Shown here: positions 10,391-25,116 of the stretch, one piece after another
Layout of the letters: every line of letters begins with the position of its first letter
How positions within the stretch are numbered: the first letter of the stretch is position 1
Origin: a virus
Taxonomy: Duplodnaviria; Heunggongvirae; Uroviricota; Caudoviricetes
Reading direction: 5' to 3' (one strand)
Length of the DNA: 35,061 nt
Virus record (IMG/VR): IMGVR_UViG_2654587570_000013
Coordinates: 1 to 35,061 of that record
The notes under the pieces: model-generated
What the model saw: the letters and a program-made list of their open reading frames with translations, nothing else
The model's database searches: none
Told to the model about the DNA's origin: nothing
Translations under genes and position numbers: made by a program

Positions 10391-11044
10391 TTATTTCTTC
10401 GATGAATGCCACTTGCTTTCGCTATTCCAGCGACCCGTCCTTGAGAAGAATAGATCGTTCTCGTTTCCAACATAGGAACGGTGGATACCATCGGAAGCAT
10501 GACTACGAGCGTTTTTATCTAGAACTTCCCAGATACTATTAAGCTGAAATTCTGATTCGTTTTTACACTCTTCATCTTCATGTTCGATGTTAATACCGAT
10601 GGAATCGACTACCCCACGGAAAACAGGGTAAGTAGTTTCAACCTTGCCCGTGTTGGGGTTAAGGAAAACCATCTCGATTTTCACATCAGATTTATCGAAT
10701 TGCTTGTTACGAATCAGGGTAATGTATTCTTCGCGAACGTTAGAAACAGTTACGTTGATCCCGTTGTTGTTGATCTCCTTCTCTTCGGTATTCGATGAGA
10801 TTTGAAGAAAGTCACCCGTTGCAAGATACGTAAAACCGTTATAGTCCAAATCGAAGTACCCATCTGTAAGCCGTAGAACGTCTCCTGACGCGGTTATTAC
10901 TTCGATAATGTGAAACATCGATCCAGTGGAAAAAAGCTGCGGTAGAGTCAATCTAGACACATTCTGCCCTGTCTGGTCGTTGTAGACCTCGATGAAGTCC
11001 AGATTAGTGCATAGTTTGCTGAATGATTCCTGAATAGTTGCCAT
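10391..11044 (-). CDS. minor tail protein (lambda L position, 217 aa)
   Basis: Called from synteny (tape measure, M-position, this gene, K-like, J-like) and the TAATG overlap with the upstream gene. Confidence 0.55.
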   Translation of the reverse strand: MATIQESFSKLCTNLDFIEVYNDQTGQNVSRLTLPQLFSTGSMFHIIEVITASGDVLRLTDGYFDLDYNGFTYLATGDFLQISSNTEEKEINNNGINVTVSNVREEYITLIRNKQFDKSDVKIEMVFLNPNTGKVETTYPVFRGVVDSIGINIEHEDEECKNESEFQLNSIWEVLDKNARSHASDGIHRSYVGNENDLFFSRTGRWNSESKWHSSKK

Positions 11045-11604
11045 TATACATTCTCCACTAATTCAAATTTCATCTTGCCGATCTGAGCGATCTTCCAATC
11101 GATGTTTTCAGTTTTGAGAACAAATTCACCTTCTACGTTCTGATACTTGATCACCTCACCCGCTAGGACGTTCTGACGCAAGTTAGGGAAGAGTTTCATT
11201 TCGCCACCTGATTTCACATCTTCGGTGATCGTGTAGATTTTCTTGTGGTTCTCAAACTGGATGATAGTTCCCGCTTTCAGTGTTCCGGTGAAGTTGGAGA
11301 TTCTCACCTTACGCCCACCGCGAGCAGTACCAGCAGCAGCCGTTACCATCTGGCGTACATCACCTGTGTATTTTGAAAAGTAAGACAGTGGCACATTGAA
11401 AGGACGACCAAAAAGGTGACGTGCTACAAATTCTTTTACTTCGTTAATATCCTGAGCCATGAAATTCGCGGTAAATTCTGCTTCGTAAAAATGGATGCCA
11501 GTAAAGCGACGCTGGAACTTACCGGATATAGATTGCGCCTTGAAGAAAGGCTGTTTTGATTTAAGAGTAAAATCTGTGATTTTAATATTCTTGGATTTGA
11601 ACAT
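11044..11604 (-). CDS. distal tail / minor tail protein (lambda M position, 186 aa)
   Basis: First gene after the tape measure. Called by position only. Confidence 0.5.
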   Translation of the reverse strand: MFKSKNIKITDFTLKSKQPFFKAQSISGKFQRRFTGIHFYEAEFTANFMAQDINEVKEFVARHLFGRPFNVPLSYFSKYTGDVRQMVTAAAGTARGGRKVRISNFTGTLKAGTIIQFENHKKIYTITEDVKSGGEMKLFPNLRQNVLAGEVIKYQNVEGEFVLKTENIDWKIAQIGKMKFELVENV

Positions 11605-11654: not shown

Positions 11655-14084
11655 TTACATCTTACGACGCTGTGCGTCTTCTACCGCCTGAGCAACTAAC
11701 TTAGCGTGACGTTTGATAGCATCCATGACCATCTTGTCTGAGCTATTAACGTTGCCGTTAATGTTCAAAGGCGCATTAACTTCAATCGGCTGAGAGTTAC
11801 CACCACCTGATTTTTGAGCAGCAAGGAAGTCTTTCAAATCGCCGTTAGTACGCTGATCAACTACTCGTTCACCCTTATCAAGCAACCATGTACCCTCACG
11901 CGGGATGTTATCGATACCATCATGAGCCATACCGCTAACGTTAGTAGACTTGATGTTTGCGATGTTCCCCATGTTCTGAGAAACAGCCAATGCAGCAGCA
12001 GCGATCTTTTGTCCTGTGGTGACGTTGGTCGGATCGTTCCATGCATCGGTAGCAGCCGTCCACATGTTCACCGTCGCTTGTCCGATAGAGAATGCTTTAT
12101 GAGCATTGAAAGCCATCTGCATAGCTTTAGTGTTTTCCTGCCCGAAGAGAGTCATTGCAGCAGCAAAACCGCCATACATATCATCGGCTATTGACTGGCG
12201 AGCATCAGCATATTTCTTTTCAATTGCAGCCATCCGTTTTTGATGGTTTTCATTGAGTTTTTCTAATGCTTCCATCCGTTTAGCCGGATCATTAATACCG
12301 TCAATCTTGAGTTTATCGGTCTTATAATCTTGTTCAGCATCCGATTTCTCTTTATCGATTGCATTAAATTTAGCAAACGGATTATTTGAGTCTTGATAAT
12401 CATAACCACTAGTTAATTGATTGGTTTTATAACCATCCATTCCCTGTAAAGAATTTTCAATCTGAGAATAGTTTTGCTCGGTATCGTTCACACGACGCAT
12501 ATATTCTTCGTAGGAGATAGCTTTACCATCAAGTAACCGTTTATGGCTTTCTAGCTCGTTGTCCCTGATTTGTTGCAATTGTGTTAAAGCATTCAGAGCA
12601 TCAATCGGATCAGCACCCAACATCATTTTATAAACGTTTTCAGTATTCTGATCGATTAGCGCCTGGCGTTTCGCGGCTGCGTCTTCCTGAGAGATTAAGC
12701 CCAGAGCTAACGCGTCGTTCACATCTTTTAAGCTGTTTTGCAACTGGCTATTTTGAGAAGTGATAGACGCTGCAACTTGCCCTTGCAATTTAACATCAAG
12801 TGCATTCAGTCGCTTGATTGCATCCTCGCGTGCTTTCTGTGCTTTTTCTGCGGCTTCCTTAGCCTTTTTAGCTGCCTCTTCCGCTTTCTTGCGTGCTTCT
12901 TCTTCGGCTTTCTTCTCATTACCAGACTTACCCAATGATTCTGGTCTTACTGGTTTATTTGGTATAGTCAAATCACGGTTAGGATCTGCCTTGCGGGTTA
13001 GATGTTCCCCGTTATCGACAACAATCAGAGAGCCATTTTTCTTATAAGAATCACCAAAACGTTTCTTAAATCCTTCAACATCAAAGCCAGCAGTACGAGG
13101 ATCGACACCAGCACCACGGATCGCGGCCTTTTCCCAATCTGCCAGATTATTCCAACGCTTTTCTTTATTGTACTTGTCAATAATTTTTTGAGCGTCTTTA
13201 TGGTTGGCGTTAAGAATACCGCCAGTTGCGGTCTTGCCTTCTTTATTCAGTCGATCTAATGCCCTGAATAGAGAACTCTTTTCCCAATCAATATTAAACC
13301 AGTCAAATAACCAGTTTAAACTATCAACCAGCGGACCAGAAATGGTCATACCGACACCTTTCAGGTTATTTTCCAGCTTATTGATATTTTGAGAAAATTT
13401 ATCATATTTTTTAGCGTTTTCTTCGGTGACGTTAACAGATTGATTCTGAATAGCGATCATCGCCTCTTGAGCAGTATTATATTTCTCAAGCTGGCTGGTC
13501 ATATGGCTTGAATCACTGGCTAAAGATTCCATCATGAACTTGATTTCAGCCATTGATTTTCCGGCTTTCTTCATGTCATAGAACACTTGGATCGCCGCTT
13601 TCATACCACCTTGCGGATCAGTCATGAAGTGAGCATAGTTTTCTAACTTAAGGCCAACCGATTCTAAGTCATCGGCAATACCGCCACCGTTAGCCCATGC
13701 ATCACCCATTTTATCTAAGGTGTCTTTGTTGATATCACCAAATTTTTCAACTGTTAGGCCAGTACCAGAAAATTCCTTTTCCAGTCTTTGAAGGGATTCA
13801 ATCGAGAGTCCGGTCGCCTTAGATACTTCTGAATATTGTTTAACGTATTCCGCGCCAGCTTTAGCGGCTGCAACCACTGCGGTCGCAACTAAGCCGATAC
13901 CACCAGCAGCTAAACCAGCAGAGCCAGCAATACCACGAAGAGATCCAGTCAGACCAGACAAGCCACCACCAAAATCAATATTACTTGCCTTTTCAGACAA
14001 ATCATCGAGCAGGTCAGCGGCTTCACTAGTGCTTCTCTTTAGCCCTTTATTATCCCCTTCTATTGTTACTATATGTTTTGTCAT
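11655..14084 (-). CDS. tape measure protein (809 aa)
   Basis: Size, position after the G/GT chaperones, long helical Ala/Lys/Glu-rich regions and N-terminal glycine-rich hydrophobic segments. Confidence 0.85.
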   Translation of the reverse strand: MTKHIVTIEGDNKGLKRSTSEAADLLDDLSEKASNIDFGGGLSGLTGSLRGIAGSAGLAAGGIGLVATAVVAAAKAGAEYVKQYSEVSKATGLSIESLQRLEKEFSGTGLTVEKFGDINKDTLDKMGDAWANGGGIADDLESVGLKLENYAHFMTDPQGGMKAAIQVFYDMKKAGKSMAEIKFMMESLASDSSHMTSQLEKYNTAQEAMIAIQNQSVNVTEENAKKYDKFSQNINKLENNLKGVGMTISGPLVDSLNWLFDWFNIDWEKSSLFRALDRLNKEGKTATGGILNANHKDAQKIIDKYNKEKRWNNLADWEKAAIRGAGVDPRTAGFDVEGFKKRFGDSYKKNGSLIVVDNGEHLTRKADPNRDLTIPNKPVRPESLGKSGNEKKAEEEARKKAEEAAKKAKEAAEKAQKAREDAIKRLNALDVKLQGQVAASITSQNSQLQNSLKDVNDALALGLISQEDAAAKRQALIDQNTENVYKMMLGADPIDALNALTQLQQIRDNELESHKRLLDGKAISYEEYMRRVNDTEQNYSQIENSLQGMDGYKTNQLTSGYDYQDSNNPFAKFNAIDKEKSDAEQDYKTDKLKIDGINDPAKRMEALEKLNENHQKRMAAIEKKYADARQSIADDMYGGFAAAMTLFGQENTKAMQMAFNAHKAFSIGQATVNMWTAATDAWNDPTNVTTGQKIAAAALAVSQNMGNIANIKSTNVSGMAHDGIDNIPREGTWLLDKGERVVDQRTNGDLKDFLAAQKSGGGNSQPIEVNAPLNINGNVNSSDKMVMDAIKRHAKLVAQAVEDAQRRKM

Positions 14085-14095
14085 AAATTACCCCT

Positions 14096-14437
14096 TTAAC
14101 CGCTTCTGAGTTTCTCAAGCAAAGATGGATCAAACATGTTCAGCATTGTCGCTTTACGTTCTTCTTCTTTCTTGCGTACAAGTTCTTCCTGTTCTTCTTT
14201 AGTTTTAAAGAGTTTTTCTTCTCTAATTAATTGGAATTGGCTAGGCTTGAGTTTCTTTGCAGTTTCACGAGTCATTCCTTGCGACGTCATATACATGGAA
14301 TACTGCAACATCGCATTCTGCATATCATGAAACGCGGGGCTTTGTGGTTCTAAGTAGGTGTCGAAAATGTATAATTTCCAAAATAGAGTGATTGGCATAT
14401 TATCCATTTCATCTTTACTAAGCCCCGATCTCATCAT
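14096..14437 (-). CDS. tail assembly chaperone T-like segment (expressed as a -1 frameshift extension of the upstream ORF)
   Basis: The ORF lies exactly in the -1 frame of 14467..14775. No SD precedes its ATG, and the -1 frame is open from 14484. Confidence 0.55.
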   Translation of the reverse strand: MMRSGLSKDEMDNMPITLFWKLYIFDTYLEPQSPAFHDMQNAMLQYSMYMTSQGMTRETAKKLKPSQFQLIREEKLFKTKEEQEELVRKKEEERKATMLNMFDPSLLEKLRSG

Positions 14438-14466
14438 TTGCCGGAAATAGAAATTCAGAAGCGGGT

Positions 14467-14775
14467 TTACTTTACCTCGTTTTCAATTACCGCCGGATCT
14501 TGCATCAATGAGGCTTGAGCAACCAAACCGATTAATTCACTGCGGACGTTAGTATACAGTGCCTTAACTTGTTCAATAGATTCAAATACTGGTTTACCGT
14601 CTTCATCTTCAATACAACGAAGAATCGAACGTTCGTCACGGTCTTCTTTATCAGTATTAAAAACATGTTCGTTAAATTCTTTTACTGACATAGGGCGAGC
14701 ATAGAAAGTGAATCCACCGATGGTCAGAGATTCGCGTTTCGGAGAGAGTGCGGCTAACATTTCGTTAATATTCAT
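14467..14775 (-). CDS. tail assembly chaperone G-like (102 aa)
   Basis: Canonical position between the tube and tape-measure genes, with the size expected of a G-like chaperone. Confidence 0.65.
   Translation of the reverse strand: MNINEMLAALSPKRESLTIGGFTFYARPMSVKEFNEHVFNTDKEDRDERSILRCIEDEDGKPVFESIEQVKALYTNVRSELIGLVAQASLMQDPAVIENEVK
14469..14476 (-). promoter_or_regulatory. candidate -1 slippery site G-GUA-AAG-UAA
   Basis: On the minus strand the last sense codons are GAG GTA AAG TAA. Slipping tRNA-Lys from AAG to AAA enters the open -1 frame. This is not a full X XXY YYZ heptamer. Confidence 0.35.
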
Positions 14776-14823: not shown

Positions 14824-14849
14824 CAAAAAAGCCACCCCGAAGGATGGCT
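14824..14849 (-). terminator. intrinsic terminator after the major tube gene
   Basis: Minus strand reads AGCCAUCC-UUCG-GGGUGGCU followed by UUUUUU. Confidence 0.7.
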
Positions 14850-14857
14850 AGATAATA

Positions 14858-15328
14858 TTAGACTTTCTGGAAAACAGCTTGTTTGACCGGAGCACCATCT
14901 ACTACAAAGGTGAAGGTACGGCCTACTACAGCATCCTCACCACCAGTCATGGTAGTTTTAGACAGGAAGCCGTTATAAGCGATATGTACACCAGATTTTT
15001 TCGTAGCATCGATGTAGTAAGCAATTTTAAGCTGTACGCGCTTACCGTCTTCGGTTGCTTTAATCAGTTTTTCGTGTACTTCGTTACCCGGCATGTAGTT
15101 GATCGAAAGTTCGATATCCGGTACAGACATACGACCAACCAGCTTACGGTTATACGGACCACCGAAGTTAGGAACATCGATAGTAGAACGTTCTACACCA
15201 GTTTCCGGGAAAGCCGCACATTCTGGAATTTCCAGATAGCTTTCACTGTCAAGATCGGTGTTAGTTACTTCTTCATGCAGAAACAGACCAACGAGGCCAC
15301 CAGAAAAAATATCAAATTTAGTAGTCAT
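14858..15328 (-). CDS. major tail tube protein (156 aa)
   Basis: Canonical position upstream of G/GT. It has strong codon optimisation (the codon-aligned antisense frame is stop-free) and its own terminator. Confidence 0.75.
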   Translation of the reverse strand: MTTKFDIFSGGLVGLFLHEEVTNTDLDSESYLEIPECAAFPETGVERSTIDVPNFGGPYNRKLVGRMSVPDIELSINYMPGNEVHEKLIKATEDGKRVQLKIAYYIDATKKSGVHIAYNGFLSKTTMTGGEDAVVGRTFTFVVDGAPVKQAVFQKV

Positions 15329-15382
15329 TATTCTTTTCCTTCTATTTTAAACAATAGGGCACATACCCGTAATTCTATTTAT

Positions 15383-15685
15383 TTAGCGGTTGCTCAAACG
15401 TCTATAACGAAGATGAGCGATCCCCCTATTTGTGCTAACGGTAATTACCGCCCCTTGCGGTGCAATACAAGAATGAATCTGTCCCCAATCATGACCCTTA
15501 TGGCTTCCAGAAACACACAAACCATGAATAAGCAATTCAGAGTCACCACCGCCACCACCGGAAGAATGAGCACAGAATGAAATAGTCCCGAAAGCGTCGG
15601 CTGTCCAACCGTTAGGAATATCAAACCATCCCTGATTTGCTTTACCCGCCCTATTCCCCAAAGCGCCATCTACCCAAAATGCCAT
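15383..15685 (-). CDS. glycine-rich small protein, paralog 3 of 3 (100 aa)
   Basis: Shares M..W...FDIPNGW...G-rich loop...GL...WG...V(S/T) with the two upstream genes. TAATG overlap with paralog 2. Confidence 0.7.
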   Translation of the reverse strand: MAFWVDGALGNRAGKANQGWFDIPNGWTADAFGTISFCAHSSGGGGGDSELLIHGLCVSGSHKGHDWGQIHSCIAPQGAVITVSTNRGIAHLRYRRLSNR

Positions 15686-15990
15686 TAGTGCATTCTCCTG
15701 AATTTAAAATAATGCAAGCTACCTTTACCCAATGTAAAGCTAACGGTAGCACCAGCGCCAACTAAAGAACTAGCGCCCCAACTCCCGGCATCAGCCGCAT
15801 GATGACCCGATTCAATCAATCCATTTACGACCAATTCAGAATCAAGATCACCAGCACCGTTAATGGCTTCCATATGAGCAAAAACAATTCCGCATGAATC
15901 AGTAACCCAGCCGTTGGGGATATCAAAATATCCACCATTAGCCCAAATACTAATAGCGTTTGACATTCTTTGATTTATCCATCCAGCCAT
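15685..15990 (-). CDS. glycine-rich small protein, paralog 2 of 3 (101 aa)
   Basis: FDIPNGW motif and C-terminal YFKF, as in paralog 1. Its start lies 2 nt after the paralog 1 stop. Confidence 0.7.
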   Translation of the reverse strand: MAGWINQRMSNAISIWANGGYFDIPNGWVTDSCGIVFAHMEAINGAGDLDSELVVNGLIESGHHAADAGSWGASSLVGAGATVSFTLGKGSLHYFKFRRMH

Positions 15991-15992
15991 AA

Positions 15993-16289
15993 TTAAAACT
16001 CCATGAATTTAAAATATTCAACACCACCTTCACCCCCTAAACCAAAGGAGACGGTGCAGCCAGCAGGAACAAACGAATTTATAGTAGATCCCCAATTGGT
16101 CCCACCACGACGACGAGCAACGGTCAAACCATCTACGTTAATATGTGCATCAGACCACCCACCACCAGCATTATGACGCATTACAGCGACACCAGCACGA
16201 GCAGTACCATAGCCGTTAGGAATATCAAATACATGCCATTTTAAAGCATCGATTTTAGTATTAATTTCGCTACTTACCCAATATCCCAT
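15993..16289 (-). CDS. glycine-rich small protein, paralog 1 of 3 (98 aa)
   Basis: AAGGA RBS. FDIPNGY motif, GGGW loop and C-terminal YFKF. It lies directly downstream of the fibre gene. Confidence 0.7.
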   Translation of the reverse strand: MGYWVSSEINTKIDALKWHVFDIPNGYGTARAGVAVMRHNAGGGWSDAHINVDGLTVARRRGGTNWGSTINSFVPAGCTVSFGLGGEGGVEYFKFMEF

Positions 16290-16327
16290 ATAAGAATCCT
16301 TAGCGGAGATTTCTCCCCGCTTTCCAA

Positions 16328-19300
16328 TTACCCTAATTTAGCTTCAATTGCAGCAAGACGTTCACGAAGAAGTTTATTTTCTTCGCTCATTTCTTGGACC
16401 GCTTTAATTAAAAGCGCGTTCACTGCGGAGTTTGAAATTGTTAAAATTTCTTCTGGGTTATCAAAACCACCAATTTTTGCGGTTTTAACAGCTTCCGGTA
16501 ATACCTCTTGTAAATCCTGTGCGATAATACCAATCTCATGACCTATAACTTCTCGGTCATTAAGAGATTTAACTTTATCGTAGGTTTTAACTTTGAGTTT
16601 ATTTACCTTATCCACCGCATTTTCTTCGTAATCTTCAACATTAATTTTCAGACGACGATCGGAACGAATATAAACATCGTTAAAGTTACCATTACCAGGA
16701 CAGTAAAAAGTACCATCATGATGGAACTCGAATACAGCTTGAGGGTGACCAGCCGCTGGCGATGCCTCCGCAGATCCAACACGAATAATTGCTTGCCCCC
16801 AATTTTGAGGAACACGACGCATACCAAAATCGACGGCAGTTGTATACCCTTGATTGGTGATTAAACTTCTTCCTTTGATAATCGGATAATAACAGTCCGG
16901 TGAAACATAGCCATGATCGACAAATATTGGCGCTTCTAAGCCCCATTGATCACCCCAACCTCCAGATTGGCTAGCAGTCCAACGTTCACCATGAACATAG
17001 AATCGAACGTTATTGACATGAGTCATTTCGACACCTTTTGGACTTAGCGCGATATCCCCCGCGTTTGTAATATTGATAGCAGCATTAGTAGCATAGCTAT
17101 AGAACGCTAATCCATTATCAGCACCACCTTTACCGATATACCAGTTGTTATTATCAGCACAAGTACCCAACAAATATATCGACGAATCGCCCGTTTCGGC
17201 ATTCATGATGATTGCGTCAGAACCACGATTAACTTTAAGTTTCCCGAAGAAGGTGTTTTTAATGGTATTATCACCCAATCGTTCAAATTCGGCTAAAAAT
17301 CCTTTTGAGTCACGAAGGCTTAAAACGTTATTTCGACCTGTATTGCTTGCCCCCCAATGGACGAGTTCCATATAGTCCATAGATTGACGAGAACCAGCTT
17401 TAAAGAAAAGATTGTCCTCAAGACGAGTGCTACCATCAATTCCAAGATGCAAACAGCGTGCGGTCGCTGTGCCACCTAGATCTAATCCACCACCAGCAAA
17501 ATCATAACTAAATGGTCTACGGCTATTCCACCCACCGAAAGAATCACCGTGATCTGTGGAAAGAATATGGAAGCTAGTTCCATCATTACGGAACATCAAA
17601 CCATAATTACCACCTTTAACAGCCAAACGAGCATTTTCAGATAATGCAACTTCGCTATTCATTACAATTTTCTGGCCTTTACCACCAGTAATATGTAATT
17701 CACCATCTTCAATCAGGTTTATCGAGTTTTGACCGTTATCATTCCACCAAATAAAATCTTTGGTTGTTCCATCACCGAAGCCAAACCAGCCATTACGAAC
17801 ATCTTGTCCAGTGCGATAATCCATGAAATTAAAATGGCTTGATTCGTTTGGTCCTCGACGAATATCAATACCAGAATTTCCACCAACACCACCATCCAAT
17901 GTTAATCTCTTGACATGTAACCCGGTTGTTGCTGTCAGCAATAATTCCTGATTTGTATCTTCGTATCCAGTAGCAAGACGATATGCGTTATCATCAACTG
18001 TCTCATGCCAGATAGTGGCAGGAGCAGAACTACGGAAGCGACGCAACATTTTCTTAGCATTTGTTTGCTGTTCGTTCAAATGCTCAATGTCATATTGGCC
18101 TTGATGGTTTCCAGCAAAATTTAACGTTCCACGGTTGCTAAAGTTATTGAACGATGAAATGTTAAGAGCATCAAAAATTTCATCTGCAACAGGTTTTTCA
18201 CCGCCCAGGTATTCAGGAGTATCCAACAGGTTTAAAGAAACACCACCGGAAGAAACTTGATATTCTGCTAAAACAAATCCTGTATGTGCACCATAGTAAG
18301 CGTAAAGATCATAATTGTCGCCATCGGTTGGAATAGCGCAAAAATGTTGTTCATAATGCCAAATAGTATAATACGCATTGAATACAACACCTTTCGGGCT
18401 ATTGTTGCCGCATCGAATCACCAATTCGATAATATTGGCTTGTCCATTCATCCCGACGTTATAACCGTTACCACCAACTAAGCGGATCTTAGCACTACGA
18501 CCGTGTTGCTGTGGCATTGTCAAAGTGCCTAGTTTAAACCAACCACCCTCGATCCCAAAATTAAGCGTCTTCTGGAACAGTCGGTCAATTTCTGCTTTCG
18601 AATATGCGCCAATTTCGGCAGGAGTAGGTTTATCACCTTCATGATACATGCGGTGAGAATATGCCAAATGACCCAATTCATCATAGCCGTATGTTCTTAC
18701 CGTATGAACCGGATTAGACCCATAAGTGAACTCAAAGCCACGAGCATGATTAACACCAGATGGATGCGGAACATGCAAGATCATTGCAATATGACCCGCC
18801 AGGTCATTCATGCGGAATGCACCAAAGTAATCAAGATTACGCGCATTTGGATCATCAAAATAGTTTGCGGTCTTAGACAGCAAATAACCATCAGTATAAG
18901 TGTTTACGTGTTTTTTGATGTACTTGCCATCAGCAGATCCATCGGCTGCATCAATACGGCTTTCTAAGCGTGCCAATTCAGAATCAGTGTAAGACTTGTT
19001 ATTGTCAACTTTGCTATGAATTGCTGTATTTTTGGCTTCAACATCACGGGTTAATGCTGCGACGTTATCCGCTGCCTCTTGCTTATTGGCTGCAATCACA
19101 CCAGTAAGGTTATTGTAGGTGTCAGTTAACTGATTTTCCGCATAGACTTTATTTGCTGCGATAGTGCGGTCAGTTTCTGTCTTAATCAGATCAACTTTGT
19201 CATTGATTGCTTTGTCATTACTTGCGATTGTCGCGTCGGTACGGGATTTAATATCATCAACTTTTTTATTGATGCGGGTATCCAGTTCCTGGGTTGCTAC

Positions 19301-19738
19301 AGCAGCCGCATTTTTATTAGCGTTGATGGTATCCGACAATTCAGCTTTAACACCAGCAAGGTCGGAAGCAGCTTTATTTTTATTGGCCTCGATTGTCGCG
19401 TCGGTTTCGCGTTTAATTACATCAACTTTATTGTTAATTTCTGCGTGATTTGCTGCGATGGTTGCATCAGTAGTTTGTTTAATTTCATCTACTTTAGCGT
19501 GAATATTGCGGTCATTTACTGCAATTGTGCTATCCAGTTCTTGTTTGTTAGCATCAACTTTAGATTCTAGTGCCGCGTGAGTTTCAGGAGAAACAGAGAT
19601 TTGAACTACTTCATGATCTCGGTCTTTGGTAAAAATAACATGGTCTTTAAGGTTGATTGCTACCTCACCGACCTGTAATTGTTCCGGCGTTGGTTTTTTG
19701 CCAGAAACATTTGTTCGTTTAAATTGGATCGACTGCAT
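16328..19738 (-). CDS. tail fibre with C-terminal intramolecular chaperone (peptidase S74) domain (1136 aa)
   Basis: N-terminus IQFKRTNVSGKKPTPEQLQVGEVAINL is a fibre N-terminal motif. There are five or more helical repeats of VD.IK..TDATIAAN. The last 111 aa start SDRRLKINVEDY... and end in a coiled coil, the S74 auto-cleaving chaperone signature, with predicted cleavage before Ser1026 (about nt 16663). Confidence 0.85.
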   Translation of the reverse strand: MQSIQFKRTNVSGKKPTPEQLQVGEVAINLKDHVIFTKDRDHEVVQISVSPETHAALESKVDANKQELDSTIAVNDRNIHAKVDEIKQTTDATIAANHAEINNKVDVIKRETDATIEANKNKAASDLAGVKAELSDTINANKNAAAVATQELDTRINKKVDDIKSRTDATIASNDKAINDKVDLIKTETDRTIAANKVYAENQLTDTYNNLTGVIAANKQEAADNVAALTRDVEAKNTAIHSKVDNNKSYTDSELARLESRIDAADGSADGKYIKKHVNTYTDGYLLSKTANYFDDPNARNLDYFGAFRMNDLAGHIAMILHVPHPSGVNHARGFEFTYGSNPVHTVRTYGYDELGHLAYSHRMYHEGDKPTPAEIGAYSKAEIDRLFQKTLNFGIEGGWFKLGTLTMPQQHGRSAKIRLVGGNGYNVGMNGQANIIELVIRCGNNSPKGVVFNAYYTIWHYEQHFCAIPTDGDNYDLYAYYGAHTGFVLAEYQVSSGGVSLNLLDTPEYLGGEKPVADEIFDALNISSFNNFSNRGTLNFAGNHQGQYDIEHLNEQQTNAKKMLRRFRSSAPATIWHETVDDNAYRLATGYEDTNQELLLTATTGLHVKRLTLDGGVGGNSGIDIRRGPNESSHFNFMDYRTGQDVRNGWFGFGDGTTKDFIWWNDNGQNSINLIEDGELHITGGKGQKIVMNSEVALSENARLAVKGGNYGLMFRNDGTSFHILSTDHGDSFGGWNSRRPFSYDFAGGGLDLGGTATARCLHLGIDGSTRLEDNLFFKAGSRQSMDYMELVHWGASNTGRNNVLSLRDSKGFLAEFERLGDNTIKNTFFGKLKVNRGSDAIIMNAETGDSSIYLLGTCADNNNWYIGKGGADNGLAFYSYATNAAINITNAGDIALSPKGVEMTHVNNVRFYVHGERWTASQSGGWGDQWGLEAPIFVDHGYVSPDCYYPIIKGRSLITNQGYTTAVDFGMRRVPQNWGQAIIRVGSAEASPAAGHPQAVFEFHHDGTFYCPGNGNFNDVYIRSDRRLKINVEDYEENAVDKVNKLKVKTYDKVKSLNDREVIGHEIGIIAQDLQEVLPEAVKTAKIGGFDNPEEILTISNSAVNALLIKAVQEMSEENKLLRERLAAIEAKLG

Positions 19739-19811
19739 CGAATCACCTCACTATAAAACAGGAATAAGGGAGGCGTTAACCTCCCGCGTCATGTTTTATT
19801 TAGAGAAGCAA

Positions 19812-20645
19812 TCAGTATTCCCCGAAGTCGATCCGGTCATGGATAGAAACGGCTTCAATCTCGGCTGGTGTCGGTTTTTCTTCTGTGGAATACACTTTCA
19901 CCCATCCAGAATTACCGTCTTTCTGGACTGTGCGAACTCGTAAACGTGGTGCGCCGGAAGCGGTGCAAGTTAATTGCCATCCACCATCTTCATTAGGTTG
20001 AACGTGAATTAGTGAAGTATCAGCACTAAATGGATTAGATACGCTCGATCCCTGATAAGTTACGAAACGGTTTCCGGCTAATGCTTCGCTATCAATCGGA
20101 CCTATGAATGGGCTAACGCCTGAACCTACGCCATAATCCCCTTGTCGCAGAATTTTTCCCTCGGTCGCGATACCCCTTGCAAGAATCCCGCCATCTGGTT
20201 CAAGTTTAAATTCCAGTGTTACAGCTTTGTTATCTGCGCCACGGGTTTTATGTGATGTGACGTAAGCATCGAATATACAAAAGTACCCTGTGTTAGCAGC
20301 ACTATAGCCAGAGTTCACAACATAGAACATACGGAAGCGTAAAGGTGTTTTATCCTCTACCGCTTTCATCAACATTGCTTGATGTTCGTCATCCAGAACA
20401 CGGTTTAACGTGAGTGTTGTCGGTTCCAGTTTACGATAACCAGCAAGTTTCCCCGTAGCGTCCTGGTCATACTCTTCTAACGTCTGGATCTCTGTGGATT
20501 CGGTTATCGTCGGAAATGCTGCGATGTTCTCGATAGGACTAAAGCTAGGATCGAAAAAGTCCGGCTGGTTATCCACCATAGTAGACACGGAGACTTCAAC
20601 ATGCGACCCCGTGAAAATGTCTAAGTTATCTTGTGTAATATTCAT
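19812..20645 (-). CDS. tail tube paralog with fibre-like C-terminal extension (277 aa)
   Basis: The N-terminal ~160 aa align by eye with the 156-aa tube: LDIFTGS/FDIFSGG, IAAFP/CAAFP, KLAGY/KLVGR, AVEDK/ATEDGK. The C-terminal ~110 aa are extra and contain EKPTPAEIEAVS, resembling DKPTPAEIGAYS in the fibre. Codon usage is not optimised. Confidence 0.65.
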   Translation of the reverse strand: MNITQDNLDIFTGSHVEVSVSTMVDNQPDFFDPSFSPIENIAAFPTITESTEIQTLEEYDQDATGKLAGYRKLEPTTLTLNRVLDDEHQAMLMKAVEDKTPLRFRMFYVVNSGYSAANTGYFCIFDAYVTSHKTRGADNKAVTLEFKLEPDGGILARGIATEGKILRQGDYGVGSGVSPFIGPIDSEALAGNRFVTYQGSSVSNPFSADTSLIHVQPNEDGGWQLTCTASGAPRLRVRTVQKDGNSGWVKVYSTEEKPTPAEIEAVSIHDRIDFGEY

Positions 20646-20654
20646 TATTACCCC

Positions 20655-21077
20655 TTAAAAACGCGCTAGATAAGAAAATTTAAGGCTAAGTGTCCCAACG
20701 ATACCCCCATCACTAGAATCATCGTCATAATCGGTATTAGAGGCTACTGGAGTGATATCTGAAATAGAGAAGCCCAAATCTTTAAAACGTGGATTATCCG
20801 GCTGAATCTGGATTATCTGGCAAATACCCTCATGAATTTTGGTTTCATGATTCTGAGAATACAACTGCATTTCGATAACGCATTCAGCTTGCATTGCATT
20901 ACCACCACGGACCCTATTGTAAGTCTCATTCATTCCGGTAATCCAACAAACCACGTCATCACTAAAGCCTTGCTGAGTTTGTTCTACGTTTAAAGCCAGA
21001 CCTAAATCTTGTTCGATAATATCCTGCAAGGCGCGTTTGATTTTCAGTCTAGGCATATTATTAACGGTAGCGAGCAT
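20655..21077 (-). CDS. putative tail completion / terminator protein (140 aa from ATG 21077)
   Basis: Called by position between the connector and tube-like genes. GGGGG SD lies 5 nt before ATG 21077. ATG 21056 is an alternative start. Confidence 0.45.
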   Translation of the reverse strand: MLATVNNMPRLKIKRALQDIIEQDLGLALNVEQTQQGFSDDVVCWITGMNETYNRVRGGNAMQAECVIEMQLYSQNHETKIHEGICQIIQIQPDNPRFKDLGFSISDITPVASNTDYDDDSSDGGIVGTLSLKFSYLARF

Positions 21078-21351
21078 GTGTACCCCCTGCACGAGCAATA
21101 AAGCAATCAGAAGTATTATCACCATTGCGCTTAACGTATTGAACTTTGAAACGCTGATTTTCTACAGTGACAACATCACCCTGATTTAAGTCTCCCTCAC
21201 GACAAAATAGAAATTCTGTCTCTGTCATTACCCCTTGTTCGTCGGTAGTAGTAATTTCATGATAAGCACGAATTGATTTACCACCTTCCACCGAAAATAC
21301 AGGAGCACTTCGGAACATTCTTGATAATTGTGATTCTGATAATTTGAACAT
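21061..21351 (-). CDS. putative head-tail connector / head closure protein (96 aa)
   Basis: First gene after the capsid terminator. Called from size and position only. Confidence 0.45.
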   Translation of the reverse strand: MFKLSESQLSRMFRSAPVFSVEGGKSIRAYHEITTTDEQGVMTETEFLFCREGDLNQGDVVTVENQRFKVQYVKRNGDNTSDCFIARAGGTHARYR

Positions 21352-21545: not shown

Positions 21546-23558
21546 TCATTCAGCGGAGATGTGAAGAACTTTCAGAGCTTCCGGCTGAACTACGGTGAAG
21601 TCCAGGTCTACCCAGATACGCGGAACGATAGCAGACTGTGCGCGGTAAGTGGTGTCGTCCATATCCAGTTCCAGACCACCCCATTCACCGATCATGATAC
21701 CGGAGAAGTCACCCAGAACGATGTGGTCTGCCGGAATAACGCCAGAAGTAACTACATCGTAACCAGCCAGTTTGCCGTTTTCGATGATATAACCGGAAAC
21801 GCCGTTATCTTTCAGGGTAGATTCCAGTTCAGCAGCAGTTGCACCGCTCATTGCAAACTTGATGGACTGTGCCGGAACGCCAGCGTCGGTCAGTGCTGCA
21901 ATTTCTTTCAGGAAGTCTTTGTAAGAGAAAGCAGCTTTCTTAGTAACGCGACCACCGTCTACCAGTTGCTTAACCAAACCTTTCGGACCGCGAGTATTGT
22001 CTTTGTCAGACAGAATCAGTTGTTCCAGTTTGATGCGAACAGCTTTGTTAATATGATCAGTGATCAGGGTAGCAATATTCGGAACAGTTTTCAGAGACTG
22101 ACGGCTGATCGGGTTGCCACCAGCAAAAGTTTTCGGAGCCATTTTCACGTTTTCAAAGGTAGCCTTCGACTCGGGGGCACTTCCATTTTCGTCTACAAAA
22201 CCAAAGGCATCAACGCTGGAAGCAGTCATTTTCGGTACAGCGATCGGGCTATTCAGACCAGACAGGACGGTCACGCCCAGACGACCCAGACACGAAGCAG
22301 GAAGCAGCATTTCGATGTATGATTCAGTCAGCAGTTTTTCGTCAGTTACAGCGGTCAGAGTAGTTTTGGTGTTACCATCAGCAGCAGCACGCAGAGCAGC
22401 AGCCGGAACGAATACAGAGCCACCGCGAGCAGCACGACCACGCTGCATTGCAGCACCAGCAGCCATAGCGGAATATTCAGCTTCGTTAGCACCCAGAGCA
22501 GCACCATCTACCAGAGAGCGAATTACGTTGTTCAGGTCAAAAGTTTTTTCCATTTTAGAGTCCTTAATTTGTTGTTCGTTGTTACGTTGAGCAGTAGCGA
22601 TTTTATTTAGTGCCTTAGTGCGGAATGCTTCCGGCGTAATTTCTTTATTTGCCAATGCGCGTTTAAATTCTTCATCGTCTTCGTTAATATTTAGCTCGCG
22701 AGCGATCTCGCGAATTTCTAATTCGTCTTCTTCGGAACGTTCAGCCACTTCTTCGATTTTTTCTTCTTCAACCGGAGCGGCTTCACGTTCTTCTTTTACT
22801 TCTTCTGCTTCCCGAACAGTTGAACTATCATCATCAACACTTTCAGGATGTTCAGCGTCTTTTCCGTCTTCGAGATTTTCATTTTCTTTATTCTCTTCAA
22901 CTTGGCGCTCTTGAGTTTCTTCAACTTCCGGTTCTTTATTTTCTTCTACCGGAGTTTCTTCAACCTGAGCGGCTTCTTGTTCTTCTTTGATTTCTTCGAT
23001 TTGTTCTTTAGTCATATCGCGTTTAGCCTCCAAATTAACTGTGATAGTATTTAGAGAGCGATTTAAACCGACCGAATCATCAGCAGGAACGGTGACAAAT
23101 GAGAGTTCATAGGGCGCCCACTTAGTAACAATCAATTGCCCTTTGGCGTAATCGATGTGATATTCTTTAATGTCATAGCCGACAGAAATTTTTTCCATCG
23201 TACCTTCAATGACTTTATTGCGAATATCATTAGCCAAAGTGCCATGCTTAGAGAATTTAACCAGAGCACGACCTACGTTATCCGCATCGATTCGAGCGTC
23301 GCAGACTACACCTAAATGATTATCGAAATTATGATTGAACAGCAACGGAGCGTTATTATTCAGACGAGACAGATCAACCGCTTCCGGTGTATGTACCAGA
23401 ATTTCATCTAGTACCACCATCTCTTGATTTTGCTCATCCCAGAATTGGCGCTGATACGGCTGTTCACTGGAGAAAGCAATTTCAAATTCGTATTGATCGT
23501 TATGCCCTTCGTTAATAACTCCACCGTAACCGTTAAGATCGCGGCGAAATTTAAGCAT
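21546..23558 (-). CDS. prohead protease / scaffold-like acidic linker / HK97-fold major capsid fusion protein (670 aa)
   Basis: The N-terminus has LLFNHNFDNHLGVV and EKISVGYD, like HK97-type (S78) prohead proteases. Residues ~185-300 are an extremely acidic helical region. The C-terminal ~340 aa are capsid-like. Codon optimisation is very strong. Confidence 0.8.
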   Translation of the reverse strand: MLKFRRDLNGYGGVINEGHNDQYEFEIAFSSEQPYQRQFWDEQNQEMVVLDEILVHTPEAVDLSRLNNNAPLLFNHNFDNHLGVVCDARIDADNVGRALVKFSKHGTLANDIRNKVIEGTMEKISVGYDIKEYHIDYAKGQLIVTKWAPYELSFVTVPADDSVGLNRSLNTITVNLEAKRDMTKEQIEEIKEEQEAAQVEETPVEENKEPEVEETQERQVEENKENENLEDGKDAEHPESVDDDSSTVREAEEVKEEREAAPVEEEKIEEVAERSEEDELEIREIARELNINEDDEEFKRALANKEITPEAFRTKALNKIATAQRNNEQQIKDSKMEKTFDLNNVIRSLVDGAALGANEAEYSAMAAGAAMQRGRAARGGSVFVPAAALRAAADGNTKTTLTAVTDEKLLTESYIEMLLPASCLGRLGVTVLSGLNSPIAVPKMTASSVDAFGFVDENGSAPESKATFENVKMAPKTFAGGNPISRQSLKTVPNIATLITDHINKAVRIKLEQLILSDKDNTRGPKGLVKQLVDGGRVTKKAAFSYKDFLKEIAALTDAGVPAQSIKFAMSGATAAELESTLKDNGVSGYIIENGKLAGYDVVTSGVIPADHIVLGDFSGIMIGEWGGLELDMDDTTYRAQSAIVPRIWVDLDFTVVQPEALKVLHISAE

Positions 23559-23604: not shown

Positions 23605-25116
23605 TTAGGGATCGGCTGGGGAATTTTTTTCTTCACCCTCGCCATCAACGATAATATTTAGTGCGCTCTTTTCGGCTTGAATCTCTGAGAATACTTTTTC
23701 AGGATCATCACCACGTTCAAGAATAACGGCAGTACGTGATTTAAGTCCTTTATCAATTAAAGCAATATCAGCGTTTACGTCTTTAATAACATCGACAGAC
23801 TCGAAACGCGGACGAATAATAGTTGTATTATCGATAATATGTGGAATTGCAGTAATACGAATCGGAACAATACCACGCGCGGAATAATGGCGTAGATACG
23901 CTTCGAAAATTGGCAATACCACTGTTTCAATCAATTTGTTTTGAAGTGCTTTAACGCGGTTACGTTGAAGTAGTTCACCAAAACGTGCGGCGCTGTAATT
24001 TATTTGGCTAGTATCGCCAGTTAAGCCCTGATTGAACACGCCAAGACCCATCGCTATACTCTTGAACATTCCATCATTGAAGCTGTTAAAGTCATCACCA
24101 CTTTGCGATGATTGAATTGACTTGATTGTTGCCCCTTCCGGCAATTCCTGAATAGTACCAGGCGCGAAATCGTGAATAACTTCCGGCGCTTGATATTGGT
24201 CTTCATCTTCACCAGTATCAAAATCGTCACCAGAATCTTTCGGACGCTCGATGAACGCCATGCTACAACTTGAAATTCGTTTATGTACCAGTACAGCTTC
24301 GCGGAATGCGTCTTGATGTGCGATATCCTTAATCACTGGCAGGAAGTCAGTCACACCACGCAGAGATTCAGCCGCAAGTGGTTGATAATAATGGCATACT
24401 TGCGAAGCATCTACGCGATAGTTATCACCTGTGTAGGTCTGAGTCAGTAGGTTGATTTTACGAAACCAGTATGCAACAGGGCGCATTGTGTGTAGGTCAT
24501 ACTCCACACCTTGATATATCGCACGCTCTTTGCTTACTTCACGGTTGAGCGACCAGTCGCACTTATCAGCAGACAGGATAGAAACATTTAACTCATTGTT
24601 TTCTTTAGTTAAAACGATGAAACACTCACCACCCATAACGCGCTCACGTTCAGCCATTACCAGCAGTTCACGGAAGTTAAAGCGACCGTTACGAGAGAAG
24701 CGTTTAGCATTCTGCGCCCACTTCCAGAAAGCATTCTCAATCTGCTTATTCAGTGCGCTATCAAGTTTGCCATTTGATTTAACGATTGATGGCTTCGGAT
24801 CTAGGCCAGTACCTACCACCATATCGGTTATGTATTGCGTGTAGCGACTGCCTACGGAAGTGTTTAAGGCCAGAGTACGACCCTGATCATAAAGGCGCTT
24901 ACCGTTCGATTTGAGAGCCTTATTGAAGGTTCCGGTGATAGTATCTTGTTGAAGCTGTCCATCAATGCGATCACCAACCAGTCCTAAACTCCGAGTCGCC
25001 AAAGATCTCTGGTATTTTTCTACTTGTTTGTCGATGAAAATTTTTGGTTGTTGCTGGCGGTGATTAGTTTTAACTGGAGTTTCTACCGCCTTTTTGCGTC
25101 GAAAAAGATTAAACAT
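23605..25116 (-). CDS. portal protein (503 aa)
   Basis: Size and position between the terminase and the protease-capsid gene. AAGGGG RBS. Confidence 0.8.
   Translation of the reverse strand: MFNLFRRKKAVETPVKTNHRQQQPKIFIDKQVEKYQRSLATRSLGLVGDRIDGQLQQDTITGTFNKALKSNGKRLYDQGRTLALNTSVGSRYTQYITDMVVGTGLDPKPSIVKSNGKLDSALNKQIENAFWKWAQNAKRFSRNGRFNFRELLVMAERERVMGGECFIVLTKENNELNVSILSADKCDWSLNREVSKERAIYQGVEYDLHTMRPVAYWFRKINLLTQTYTGDNYRVDASQVCHYYQPLAAESLRGVTDFLPVIKDIAHQDAFREAVLVHKRISSCSMAFIERPKDSGDDFDTGEDEDQYQAPEVIHDFAPGTIQELPEGATIKSIQSSQSGDDFNSFNDGMFKSIAMGLGVFNQGLTGDTSQINYSAARFGELLQRNRVKALQNKLIETVVLPIFEAYLRHYSARGIVPIRITAIPHIIDNTTIIRPRFESVDVIKDVNADIALIDKGLKSRTAVILERGDDPEKVFSEIQAEKSALNIIVDGEGEEKNSPADP

Follow-up and report, generated by a model that had tools for sequence, protein, structure and literature searches.

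A tail tube paralog as a probable socket for side tail fibres in an Enterobacterales prophage

Why would a tailed phage encode a second tube-like protein, and why would a side fibre and three small genes lie between it and the ordinary tube gene? This arrangement is found in a 35,061-nucleotide stretch of viral DNA analysed here as a whole (the window). Its source is an E. coli prophage, carried for example by strains UTAK-14 (NZ_CP168998) and DEC5A. The open reading frames of the block are all on the minus strand, with the coordinates that a first-pass annotation had given them, and the features of the region are as follows.

11044-11604, minus strand: separate distal tail protein, 186 aa (phrog_1302 'distal tail protein', E 1.4e-16)
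11655-14084, minus strand: tape measure protein, 809 aa (phrog_13674, E 4.6e-67)
14096..14775, minus strand: tail assembly chaperone pair, 102 aa G-like and 113 aa T-like (weak Pfam Phage_TAC_13 and Phage_tail_T; phrog_344)
14830..14849, minus strand: terminator-like hairpin 3' of the tube gene (eight-pair stem with 5 GC pairs, then a T run)
14858..15328, minus strand: bulk tail tube protein, 156 aa (phrog_158, E 3e-20; CAI 0.61)
15383..16289, minus strand: three small paralogous ORFs, 100/101/98 aa, with a common FDIPNGW motif
16328..19738, minus strand: side fibre, 1136 aa (Pfam and phrog_1699)
19812..20645, minus strand: proposed fibre anchor, 277 aa, a paralog of the tube protein extended at the C-terminus by fibre-type sequence
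20655..21077, minus strand: tail terminator, 140 aa (terminator fold; alternative ORF start at 21125)
21061..21351, minus strand: head-closure protein, 96 aa, gpFII-like (Pfam Phage_attach, E 6.7e-5, under the curated threshold)

Pfam contained no family for either the 140-aa or the 277-aa protein, NCBIfam gave no match for any of seven proteins tested, and the 3' end of the G gene has no canonical slippery heptamer for a G/GT frameshift.

The 156-aa and 277-aa proteins had been described as clear paralogs. Their homology holds, but it is not clear in pairwise comparison, where BLASTP returns E=50, and profiles are therefore required to compare them. Each has a match to phrog_158 ('major tail protein'), that of the 277-aa protein with E 4.6e-10, and the two matches cover the same stretch of the profile; hhalign of the two families gives a probability of 99.1% (E 5.6e-19, 152 aligned columns) with tube domains that are ~21% identical. 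This alignment pairs DIFSGG with DIFTGS, AAFP with AAFP, KLVGR with KLAGY, and ATEDGK with AVEDK, exactly the motif pairs listed by the first-pass annotation. That annotation would have abandoned the kinship had structure comparison shown the proteins to be unrelated; the structure model of the 277-aa protein in fact matches tube proteins and has their beta-sandwich plus helix fold. Its family profile found nothing meaningful among PDB sequences. The 156-aa protein matches Pfam Phage_TTP_12 below threshold, and its counterparts in relatives are labelled 'phage tail tube protein' by PGAP. Fibres aside, the 277-aa protein is closest to tube proteins from its own prophage group. At the level of profile comparison, its N-terminal 160 residues are shown to derive from a copy of this phage's tube protein that has since diverged.

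The 277-aa gene sits in the usual terminator-to-tube interval, and the role of tail terminator was considered for it. The 140-aa neighbour has the terminator fold, and the 277-aa protein lacks the gpU-like alpha/beta fold of a terminator of the lambda gpU / DUF3168 type, its model matching tube proteins. Nor is its gene in the position of a distal tail protein gene, a separate one being encoded after the tape measure; hub genes are also present in the window. With other genes supplying the terminator and the distal tail protein, the 277-aa protein is best regarded as an extra tube-like part.

Codon usage distinguishes the two tube-like genes. With Sharp & Li weights, and with codon bias taken as a proxy for expression only, the 156-aa tube gene has a CAI of 0.61 and the capsid gene, in its capsid half, one of 0.69. 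The 277-aa gene, at 0.29, resembles the portal (0.33) and tape measure (0.35) genes. The short copy thus has the codon usage of a major, highly expressed tail component and the long copy does not, as had been noted before, and the hairpin at 14849-14830 on the minus strand agrees with the earlier view that the tube gene has its own terminator. Judged by codon bias, the 277-aa protein is shown to be made at the level of a minor component.

The 277-aa protein, hereafter the anchor, combines a single tube domain with a fibre-type extension in each chain, and two segments of the fibre are related to this layout.

20160..20645, minus strand: tube-like domain, anchor aa 1-162
20034..20159, minus strand: glycine-rich linker, anchor aa 163-204 (GDYGVGSG...), predicted to be flexible
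19815..20033, minus strand: fibre-type 'shoulder', anchor aa 205-~256, then KPTPAEIEA at aa 257-265 and the C-terminal tail DRIDFGEY
19589..19738, minus strand: N-terminal ~50 aa of the fibre (MQSIQFKRT..GKKPTPEQL..GEVAINLKDHVIF), the proposed docking end
18596..18937, minus strand: shoulder domain of the fibre, aa 268-381, homologous to the anchor C-domain and ending KPTPAEIGAY (phrog_8378, phrog_20472, BLASTP)

The linker has a pLDDT <50 and is 19% glycine, and the C-terminal half of the anchor is modelled by AF2 with moderate to low confidence (pLDDT 33-69). BLASTP aligns the anchor C-domain with fibre aa 300-380 (E 9e-4), defining a common ~80-aa domain, and the fibre-type KPTPAEI(E/G)A motif that had been pointed out in the extension lies inside it, at aa 257 of the anchor and aa 370 of the fibre.

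The 1136-aa protein is itself recognizable as a fibre. It matches phrog_1699 ('long tail fiber distal subunit', E 1.7e-129), and Pfam identifies an S74 C-terminal domain (Peptidase_S74, 6.6e-15) together with T-even fibre trimerisation domains (Gp34_trimer, 1.2e-15, and a weak gp37_trimer). The three small ORFs beside it are 25-38% identical to one another on alignment and are true paralogs, as had been proposed. Neither NCBIfam nor the PDB gave a credible match for them, and in Pfam two were without a family and the third had only a sub-threshold, chance-level hit. We regard them as putative fibre accessory proteins.

How the anchor and the fibre are related becomes apparent from their homologs. 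A profile of the anchor tube domain recovers ~113 protein clusters of 342-1563 aa in which this domain occupies residues ~3-150 and the C-terminal parts contain Peptidase_S74, T4 gp36, and Phage_tail_C_2 domains. The anchor aligns to the first 240 positions of these fused proteins (E 1e-35), the linker motif G-D-x-G-V-G is kept in split and fused family members alike, and in longer anchor homologs fibre repeats are inserted between the KPTPAEI motif and the C-end. By homology, the tube-like domain, linker, and shoulder are shown to be the N-terminus of complete fibres in many related Enterobacterales prophages. Since the tube domain is fused to fibres in one chain, the 277-aa protein and the 1136-aa fibre are linked as a unit, and the window contains the split version, with an anchor ending in IDFGEY and a separate fibre with a conserved N-terminus.

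Gene order is equally consistent. The plain tube gene lies 0-2 ORFs downstream of the fusion gene in 64/64 viral contigs, an anchor or fusion is found upstream of the tube gene in every locus recovered with the tube protein as query, and the order terminator, anchor or fusion, fibre (where separate), plain tube is invariant in all related loci examined. The order is the same in E. coli, Proteus, and metagenome contigs. A tblastn search of 50,697 phage records with the 277-aa protein, a fused N-terminus, and the tube protein returned only DCP80 and weak Vibrio tube matches, and DCP80, the sole match to the module in this database, is a chimeric record, which leaves no cultured phage with the module among those records. 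Scanning viral contigs with the single protein P0113 gave no match. In the published literature we found no description of tube-domain-fused fibres or of second tube proteins so attached.

In the split loci, the anchor and fibre have matching ends. A fibre with a QFKR(T/S) N-terminus follows the anchor in all 35 of the 35 loci examined, and the C-end motif is present in 34/35 split-type anchors versus 0/80 fused proteins. Two variants of the anchor C-end, IDFGE[FY] and IDLGTF, track two variants of the fibre N-terminus, a match that could stem from shared ancestry and not from physical contact. E. coli relatives with a different distal fibre still keep the N-terminal ~50 aa, and there is no separate collar gene between anchor and fibre in the window.

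These observations lead us to conclude that the 277-aa protein is probably a low-copy, tube-like socket of the side tail fibre. The first-pass annotation had suggested a specialised tube-like anchor for the side fibre, and this suggestion is supported by the fusions, the gene order, the codon bias, the other roles already being filled, and the docking pair. With about even confidence we extend it to a wider proposal, that many Enterobacterales prophages attach side fibres by an undescribed route in which an N-terminal tube paralog forms one ring within the wall of the tube, a flexible linker takes its six subunits to two trimeric fibres, and the window is a derived two-gene form with a plug (the fibre N-terminus) and a socket (the IDFGEY tail). 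Six tube-like domains would form this ring, stacked in line with the ordinary tube rings, and the glycine-rich linker would let three adjacent chains meet outside the tube wall, one ring carrying two trimeric stubs or fibres. A point against the model is the symmetry mismatch that it requires between six tube domains and trimeric fibres. The ancestral one-chain fibre would have split in the lineage of the window, leaving the separate 1136-aa fibre to dock on the IDFGEY tail of the anchor via its own N-terminal ~50 residues. The outer two-thirds of the fibre and the three accessory genes would swap freely with T-even phages, changing host range while the anchor stays fixed.

The least certain step is the position of the ring. 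It would most likely be at the far end of the tube beside the distal tail protein, by analogy with p140 of T5. The anchor gene lies between terminator and tube, unlike that of p140, which is among the tail-tip genes, and this could point to a head-proximal site. A ring in the neck, where the terminator meets the last tube ring, would make the fibres collar or whisker fibres and has a parallel in T4 gp3, which has a tube fold and closes off the tube beneath gp15. We consider this placement unlikely but worth keeping in mind; the site upstream of the tube gene is explained most simply by tandem duplication of the tube gene.

Less probable again is that the anchor is incorporated at low frequency among the 156-aa subunits throughout the tail, which would place fibres at random heights. 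The homologous tube domains and the low expression relative to the tube protein are what a sub-stoichiometric subunit should have, and mixed plain and decorated tubes are known, as in the gp17.1/gp17.1* pair of SPP1. Extended tube proteins provide further examples (PMC6669499). Against this, domains that are only ~21% identical are less likely to make the same lateral contacts within a mixed ring, and the decorated tubes that are known use a frameshift or a same-gene Ig domain, not an old separate paralog. The fused homologs, moreover, end in obligately trimeric modules such as the S74 chaperone, and such ends need three neighbouring chains and not scattered single ones.

Part of this locus is conserved and part is exchanged.

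15367..18652, minus strand: exchanged segment, fibre aa ~363-1136 and the three small ORFs (megablast)

In megablast this segment matches the gp37 locus of Krischvirus G37-3 (86% identity) and that of KFS-EC (94% identity), and in T-even phages, too, the small ORFs accompany the distal fibre. The exchange junction is ~7 codons upstream of the KPTPAEIGAY motif. The distal end of the fibre varies widely among relatives (S74 peptidase, pyocin knob, or gp38 adhesin), conservation within the lineage covers the anchor and the fibre up to aa ~360, and the anchor and fibre N-terminus are conserved with the head-tail genes in E. coli, Salmonella, Proteus, Edwardsiella, and others. Mobility is restricted to the distal fibre and the three small ORFs, which are 80-94% identical to T-even phages.

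The alternative offered by the first-pass annotation, that a whole mobile tube-fibre-adhesin block recombined at the tube gene with the second tube gene as a passenger, draws on this clear transfer of T-even DNA, on the variety of distal ends, and on distant Cronusvirus relatives without the block, but is very improbable given that the transferred segment stops at fibre aa ~363, that the anchor and fibre N-terminus are conserved beside the head-tail genes across several genera, that the anchor is closest, fibres aside, to tube proteins of its own phage group, and that the proposed search for relatives lacking the block found none within the clade.

If the proposed socket is real, the fibre is part of the tube, which is a new way to fit three-fold fibres to a six-fold tube, and a duplicate of the tube gene has been co-opted to recognize hosts. 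Prophages of clinically important Enterobacterales commonly contain the module, so it bears on predicting and re-engineering prophage host range. A natural swap point is the KPTPAEIGAY motif, as shown by the fixed anchor, the exchangeable distal fibre, and the T-even-derived tip; the plug and socket pair of fibre N-terminus and IDFGEY tail would, if correctly identified, be a natural exchange point for host-range engineering. Named carriers of the proposed tube-wall route are E. coli, Salmonella, Klebsiella, Citrobacter, Serratia, Pantoea, and others.

To our knowledge, few side-fibre attachments on long noncontractile tails have been solved, and all are collars around the tube (T5, Ur-lambda, and lactococcal phages). 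The distal fibre resembles the gp37 type of T-even phages, with fibre aa ~363-1136 and the small ORFs at 80-94% DNA identity to Krischvirus and related E. coli myophages. In T-even phages this distal half is joined via gp36, gp35, and gp34 to the baseplate of a contractile tail; here it is grafted on a siphophage-specific proximal part, which is proposed to dock on the tube-like anchor. Decorated tube proteins share with the anchor a tube domain bearing an outward-facing C-terminal addition. The lambda gpV Ig domain, SPP1 gp17.1*, and the lactococcal frameshift extensions place the decorated form along the whole tail, and in SPP1 the gp17.1/gp17.1* pair gives a mixed plain and decorated tube. 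In those cases the addition is on the major protein itself or on a same-gene frameshift product, whereas the anchor is an old separate paralog with minor-protein codon usage and a true fibre module.

The Ur-lambda Stf has three N-terminal collar domains, flexible linkers, and one trimeric shaft, an arrangement that absorbs the mismatch between ring and fibre symmetry; the domain is a small beta-sheet-plus-helix, with 12 copies outside the gpV/gpM junction and four fibres (PMC12617516). As in our proposal, the fibre has its own N-terminal ring-forming domain, but in the present system that domain adopts the tube fold and would belong to the wall of the tube; six copies would then yield two fibres. 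The neck passage structure or BppU-type collar of lactococcal phages, whose Ig-like BppU fold is predicted to encircle the connector as an 18-mer (PMC6669499), is likewise an accessory fibre with an N-terminal ring-forming domain, a trimeric shaft, and an exchangeable receptor-binding end. Its ring domain is not a tube-protein paralog.

The closest parallel is T5, in which p140, a duplicated tube protein, is the seat of the fibre collar (PMC10038345). The anchor has also arisen by duplication of the phage's own tube protein. The first-pass annotation held that separate plain and decorated tube genes differ from known solutions, and since T5 already uses p140 in this way that claim needs qualifying: what still sets the present system apart is the extension or fibre in the same chain. 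T5 p140 has two tube domains per chain, is trimeric and undecorated, and is encoded among the tail-tip genes, the fibres being held by a collar of 12 copies of a separate Ig-like protein, p132 (PMC10038345). Its authors regard p140 and p132 together as a landmark of T5-like phages only (PMC10038345). The anchor, in contrast, has a single tube domain and no separate collar gene between its own gene and that of the fibre, carries a fibre-type extension or, in the fused homologs, the whole fibre in the same polypeptide, and is encoded between the terminator and the tube.

In an E. coli prophage, the proposed fibre anchor (a 277-aa protein that begins with a tube-like domain), its fibre and the plain tube protein are encoded in a late operon on the minus strand, listed below in order of transcription.

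Late-operon features of the window
23605-25116, minus strand, portal
21546-23558, minus strand, protease-capsid fusion
21061-21351, minus strand, 96-aa gpFII-like protein
20655-21077, minus strand, 140-aa protein (tail terminator)
19812-20645, minus strand, 277-aa protein (anchor)
16328-19738, minus strand, 1136-aa fibre
15383-16289, minus strand, three ~100-aa ORFs
14858-15328, minus strand, 156-aa tube protein
14096-14775, minus strand, two chaperone-like genes
11655-14084, minus strand, tape measure
11044-11604, minus strand, distal tail protein
With the distal tail protein at the downstream end, minus strand, hub proteins; central fibre of 1248 aa

Of 5426 complete E. coli genomes, 55 contain a near-identical prophage, which spans at least 80% of the region in 25 cases. 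In the NCBI annotation of these prophages, the 277-aa product is hypothetical and the 156-aa product is named "phage tail tube protein". In the window, a single ORF of 670 aa encodes both prohead protease and major capsid protein and includes a long acidic linker; a strong terminator-like hairpin (21408-21387) lies 3' of it. An upstream ATG in the terminator ORF (20655-21125) would give 156 aa with a hydrophobic N-terminus (MVIILLIALLLVQG) and an overlap with the 96-aa gene; NCBI annotation and homologues favour the start at 21077, which gives 140 aa. There is no clear sign of the expected G/GT frameshift: the 3' end of G in the window has no canonical XXXYYYZ slippery site; the sole match, TTTAAAA at 14209, is inside T, and the T-like chaperone frame opens just a few codons ahead of the G-like stop (14437-14475).

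The first-pass annotation called the 156-aa and 277-aa proteins clear paralogs. The relationship is real, although this wording overstates what a simple pairwise comparison gives (BLASTP E = 50, not significant). Both proteins match phrog_158, "major tail protein", at the same profile positions, and hhalign of the two families, each aligned from related loci and database homologues, pairs them over 152 columns (99.1% probability, E 5.6e-19) and recovers the motifs that the annotation had listed. The tube-like domain of the anchor is a homologue of the tube protein and has its fold. The top hit bears the misleading database name "neck whiskers protein"; its paper gives a tube protein. With Sharp & Li weights for the CAI, the 156-aa gene scores 0.61 and the capsid half of the protease-capsid gene 0.69 (0.51 for the whole gene), the portal 0.33, the tape measure 0.35, and the 277-aa gene 0.29, which is the codon usage of a minor protein. 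The annotation was right that the short copy is codon-optimised and the long one is not, that the tube gene has a terminator-like hairpin 3' of it, and that the long copy carries a fibre-type motif: KPTPAEI begins at aa 257 in the 277-aa protein and at aa 370 in the fibre, and belongs to an ~80-aa domain common to both (E 9e-4).

A profile of the tube-like domain alone, searched against 1.84 billion representative proteins, returned 150 clusters, 149 of them new. About 30 clusters are plain ~150-aa tube proteins, and ~113 of the new ones are proteins of 342-1563 aa with the tube-like domain at residues ~3-150. These long proteins are true fibres: towards the C-terminus they have typical fibre repeats and domains of the Peptidase_S74, T4 gp36 or Phage_tail_C_2 families. 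One group consists of one-chain fibres (750-1563 aa) and the other of anchors (275-1209 aa) with the conserved C-terminal end [IVL]D[FLA]G[ETL][FYE]; the 277-aa protein is the shortest anchor form, and longer anchors have fibre repeats inserted between the KPTPAE motif and this end. Alignment of the 277-aa protein with the fused fibres spans their first 240 positions, through tube domain, glycine-rich linker and shoulder domain (E 1e-35). By exact look-up, both groups belong to Enterobacterales (Salmonella, Citrobacter, E. coli, Klebsiella, Enterobacter, Rahnella, Pantoea, Serratia and Mangrovibacter). These fusions are the decisive evidence for the anchor's link to a fibre.

The split forms carry matching termini. 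Downstream of each of the 35 split-type anchors lies a fibre gene, and the encoded fibres share a ~50-aa domain at the N-terminus (..QFKR[TS]..G.KPT...GE.AIN..D..IY). The C-end motif terminates 34 of the 35 anchors (the remaining one ends in IDFGKY) and 0 of 80 fused proteins. Anchors ending in IDFGE[FY] and in IDLGTF are each paired with their own variant of the fibre N-terminus. This is how a plug-and-socket pair made by splitting one gene would look; shared ancestry could also account for the paired termini, since it would yield the same pairing.

Gene order is constant too. The fused fibre gene precedes a plain ~152-aa tube gene at all 64 IMG/VR loci with enough sequence, with no ORF between them in 53, one in 10 and two in 1. 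Full ORF maps were inspected for 16 loci, and all of these share the order terminase, ~165 aa, portal, protease-capsid, ~105 aa, ~132 aa, fusion, tube, two chaperones, tape measure, tail tip. E. coli variants, Proteus and a metagenome contig whose anchor has 482 aa show the same order. A tube-protein search found an anchor or fusion upstream at every locus with enough context, and among its loci no clade member without the module. Cronusvirus R4C and RcCronus, which are distantly related in their head genes, lack such a block and have only one tube gene. In some E. coli relatives (among H25, H27, H32 and H35), IS elements (IS3, IS903B) or a gene for a GIY-YIG nuclease lie between anchor and tube genes, an interval that appears to tolerate insertions. 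Many E. coli relatives (loci L004, 2316-3473, and L106-L126) have the fibre upstream of the tube gene and a 168-aa adhesin of the gp38 type encoded downstream of it, so that the tube gene is embedded in the fibre module. A sub-lineage with 465-485-aa anchors (L008, 14729-15484; L129-L137) has a ~251-aa plain tube protein whose C-terminal extension looks like Ig-type decoration, so that a single phage combines a decorated tube protein with tube-anchored fibres.

The annotation's alternative, insertion of a whole tube-fibre-adhesin cassette, is unsupported, because matches to other phages stop at fibre aa ~363 and relatives keep the anchor and fibre start. Megablast matches to phage genomes are confined to 15367-18652, comprising fibre aa ~363-1136 (the distal two-thirds) and the three small ORFs, with 80-94% DNA identity to T-even E. 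coli myophages (Krischvirus G37-3, 86%; KFS-EC, 94%; MIZ4), in which the match falls on the gp37 locus. E. coli relatives retain the anchor and the first ~55-65 aa of the fibre with differing distal ends, such as pyocin-knob S74 or gp38 adhesin. Exchange is confined to the outer fibre. The junction lies ~7 codons upstream of KPTPAEIGAY, which suggests that this motif is a joint at which fibre modules recombine. The small ORFs (98-101 aa) are tandem paralogs, as first annotated, sharing an FDIPNGW motif; they have no Pfam, NCBIfam or PDB-sequence match, lie between the gp37-like gene and holin in T-even phages, and possibly encode a tip adhesin or fibre accessory.

We propose that tandem duplication of the tube gene would account for the location of the anchor gene, and that the tube-like domains would form one hexameric ring within the tube stack. 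Through the glycine-rich, low-confidence linker (aa 163-204), three neighbouring chains would converge into a trimer, so that one ring would carry two fibres, each fibre N-terminus docking onto the anchor's C-terminal region. Solved structures from two phages lend these steps plausibility: the duplicated tube protein p140 of T5 seats the fibre collar (PMC10038345) and, in Ur-lambda, flexible linkers join three collar domains to each trimeric fibre (PMC12617516). Where the ring sits is the weakest point. We favour the tip-proximal end, because of the analogy with T5 and lambda and the reach of the fibres; a neck position seems unlikely. Sparse co-polymerisation of the anchor with the tube protein is more doubtful still.

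Full-text literature searches returned nothing that describes this prophage group or a fibre whose N-terminal domain is a tube protein. In a 50,697-record collection, the only cultured phage with the module is Escherichia phage DCP80 (GenBank PQ671644.1; loci L001 and L092), classed under Straboviridae with a genome of 141 kb. The first ~25 kb of the record are a siphophage head-tail module as in this prophage group; beyond them come T4-like genes, and two rIIA copies lie in opposite orientation. The record is probably a chimeric assembly. According to the T5 authors, only T5-like phages have p140 and p132, and side fibres of other siphophages must be anchored in a different way (PMC10038345). 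A specialised tube ring for side fibres is known from T5-like phages; the new element here would be a ring that is joined covalently or modularly to the fibre.
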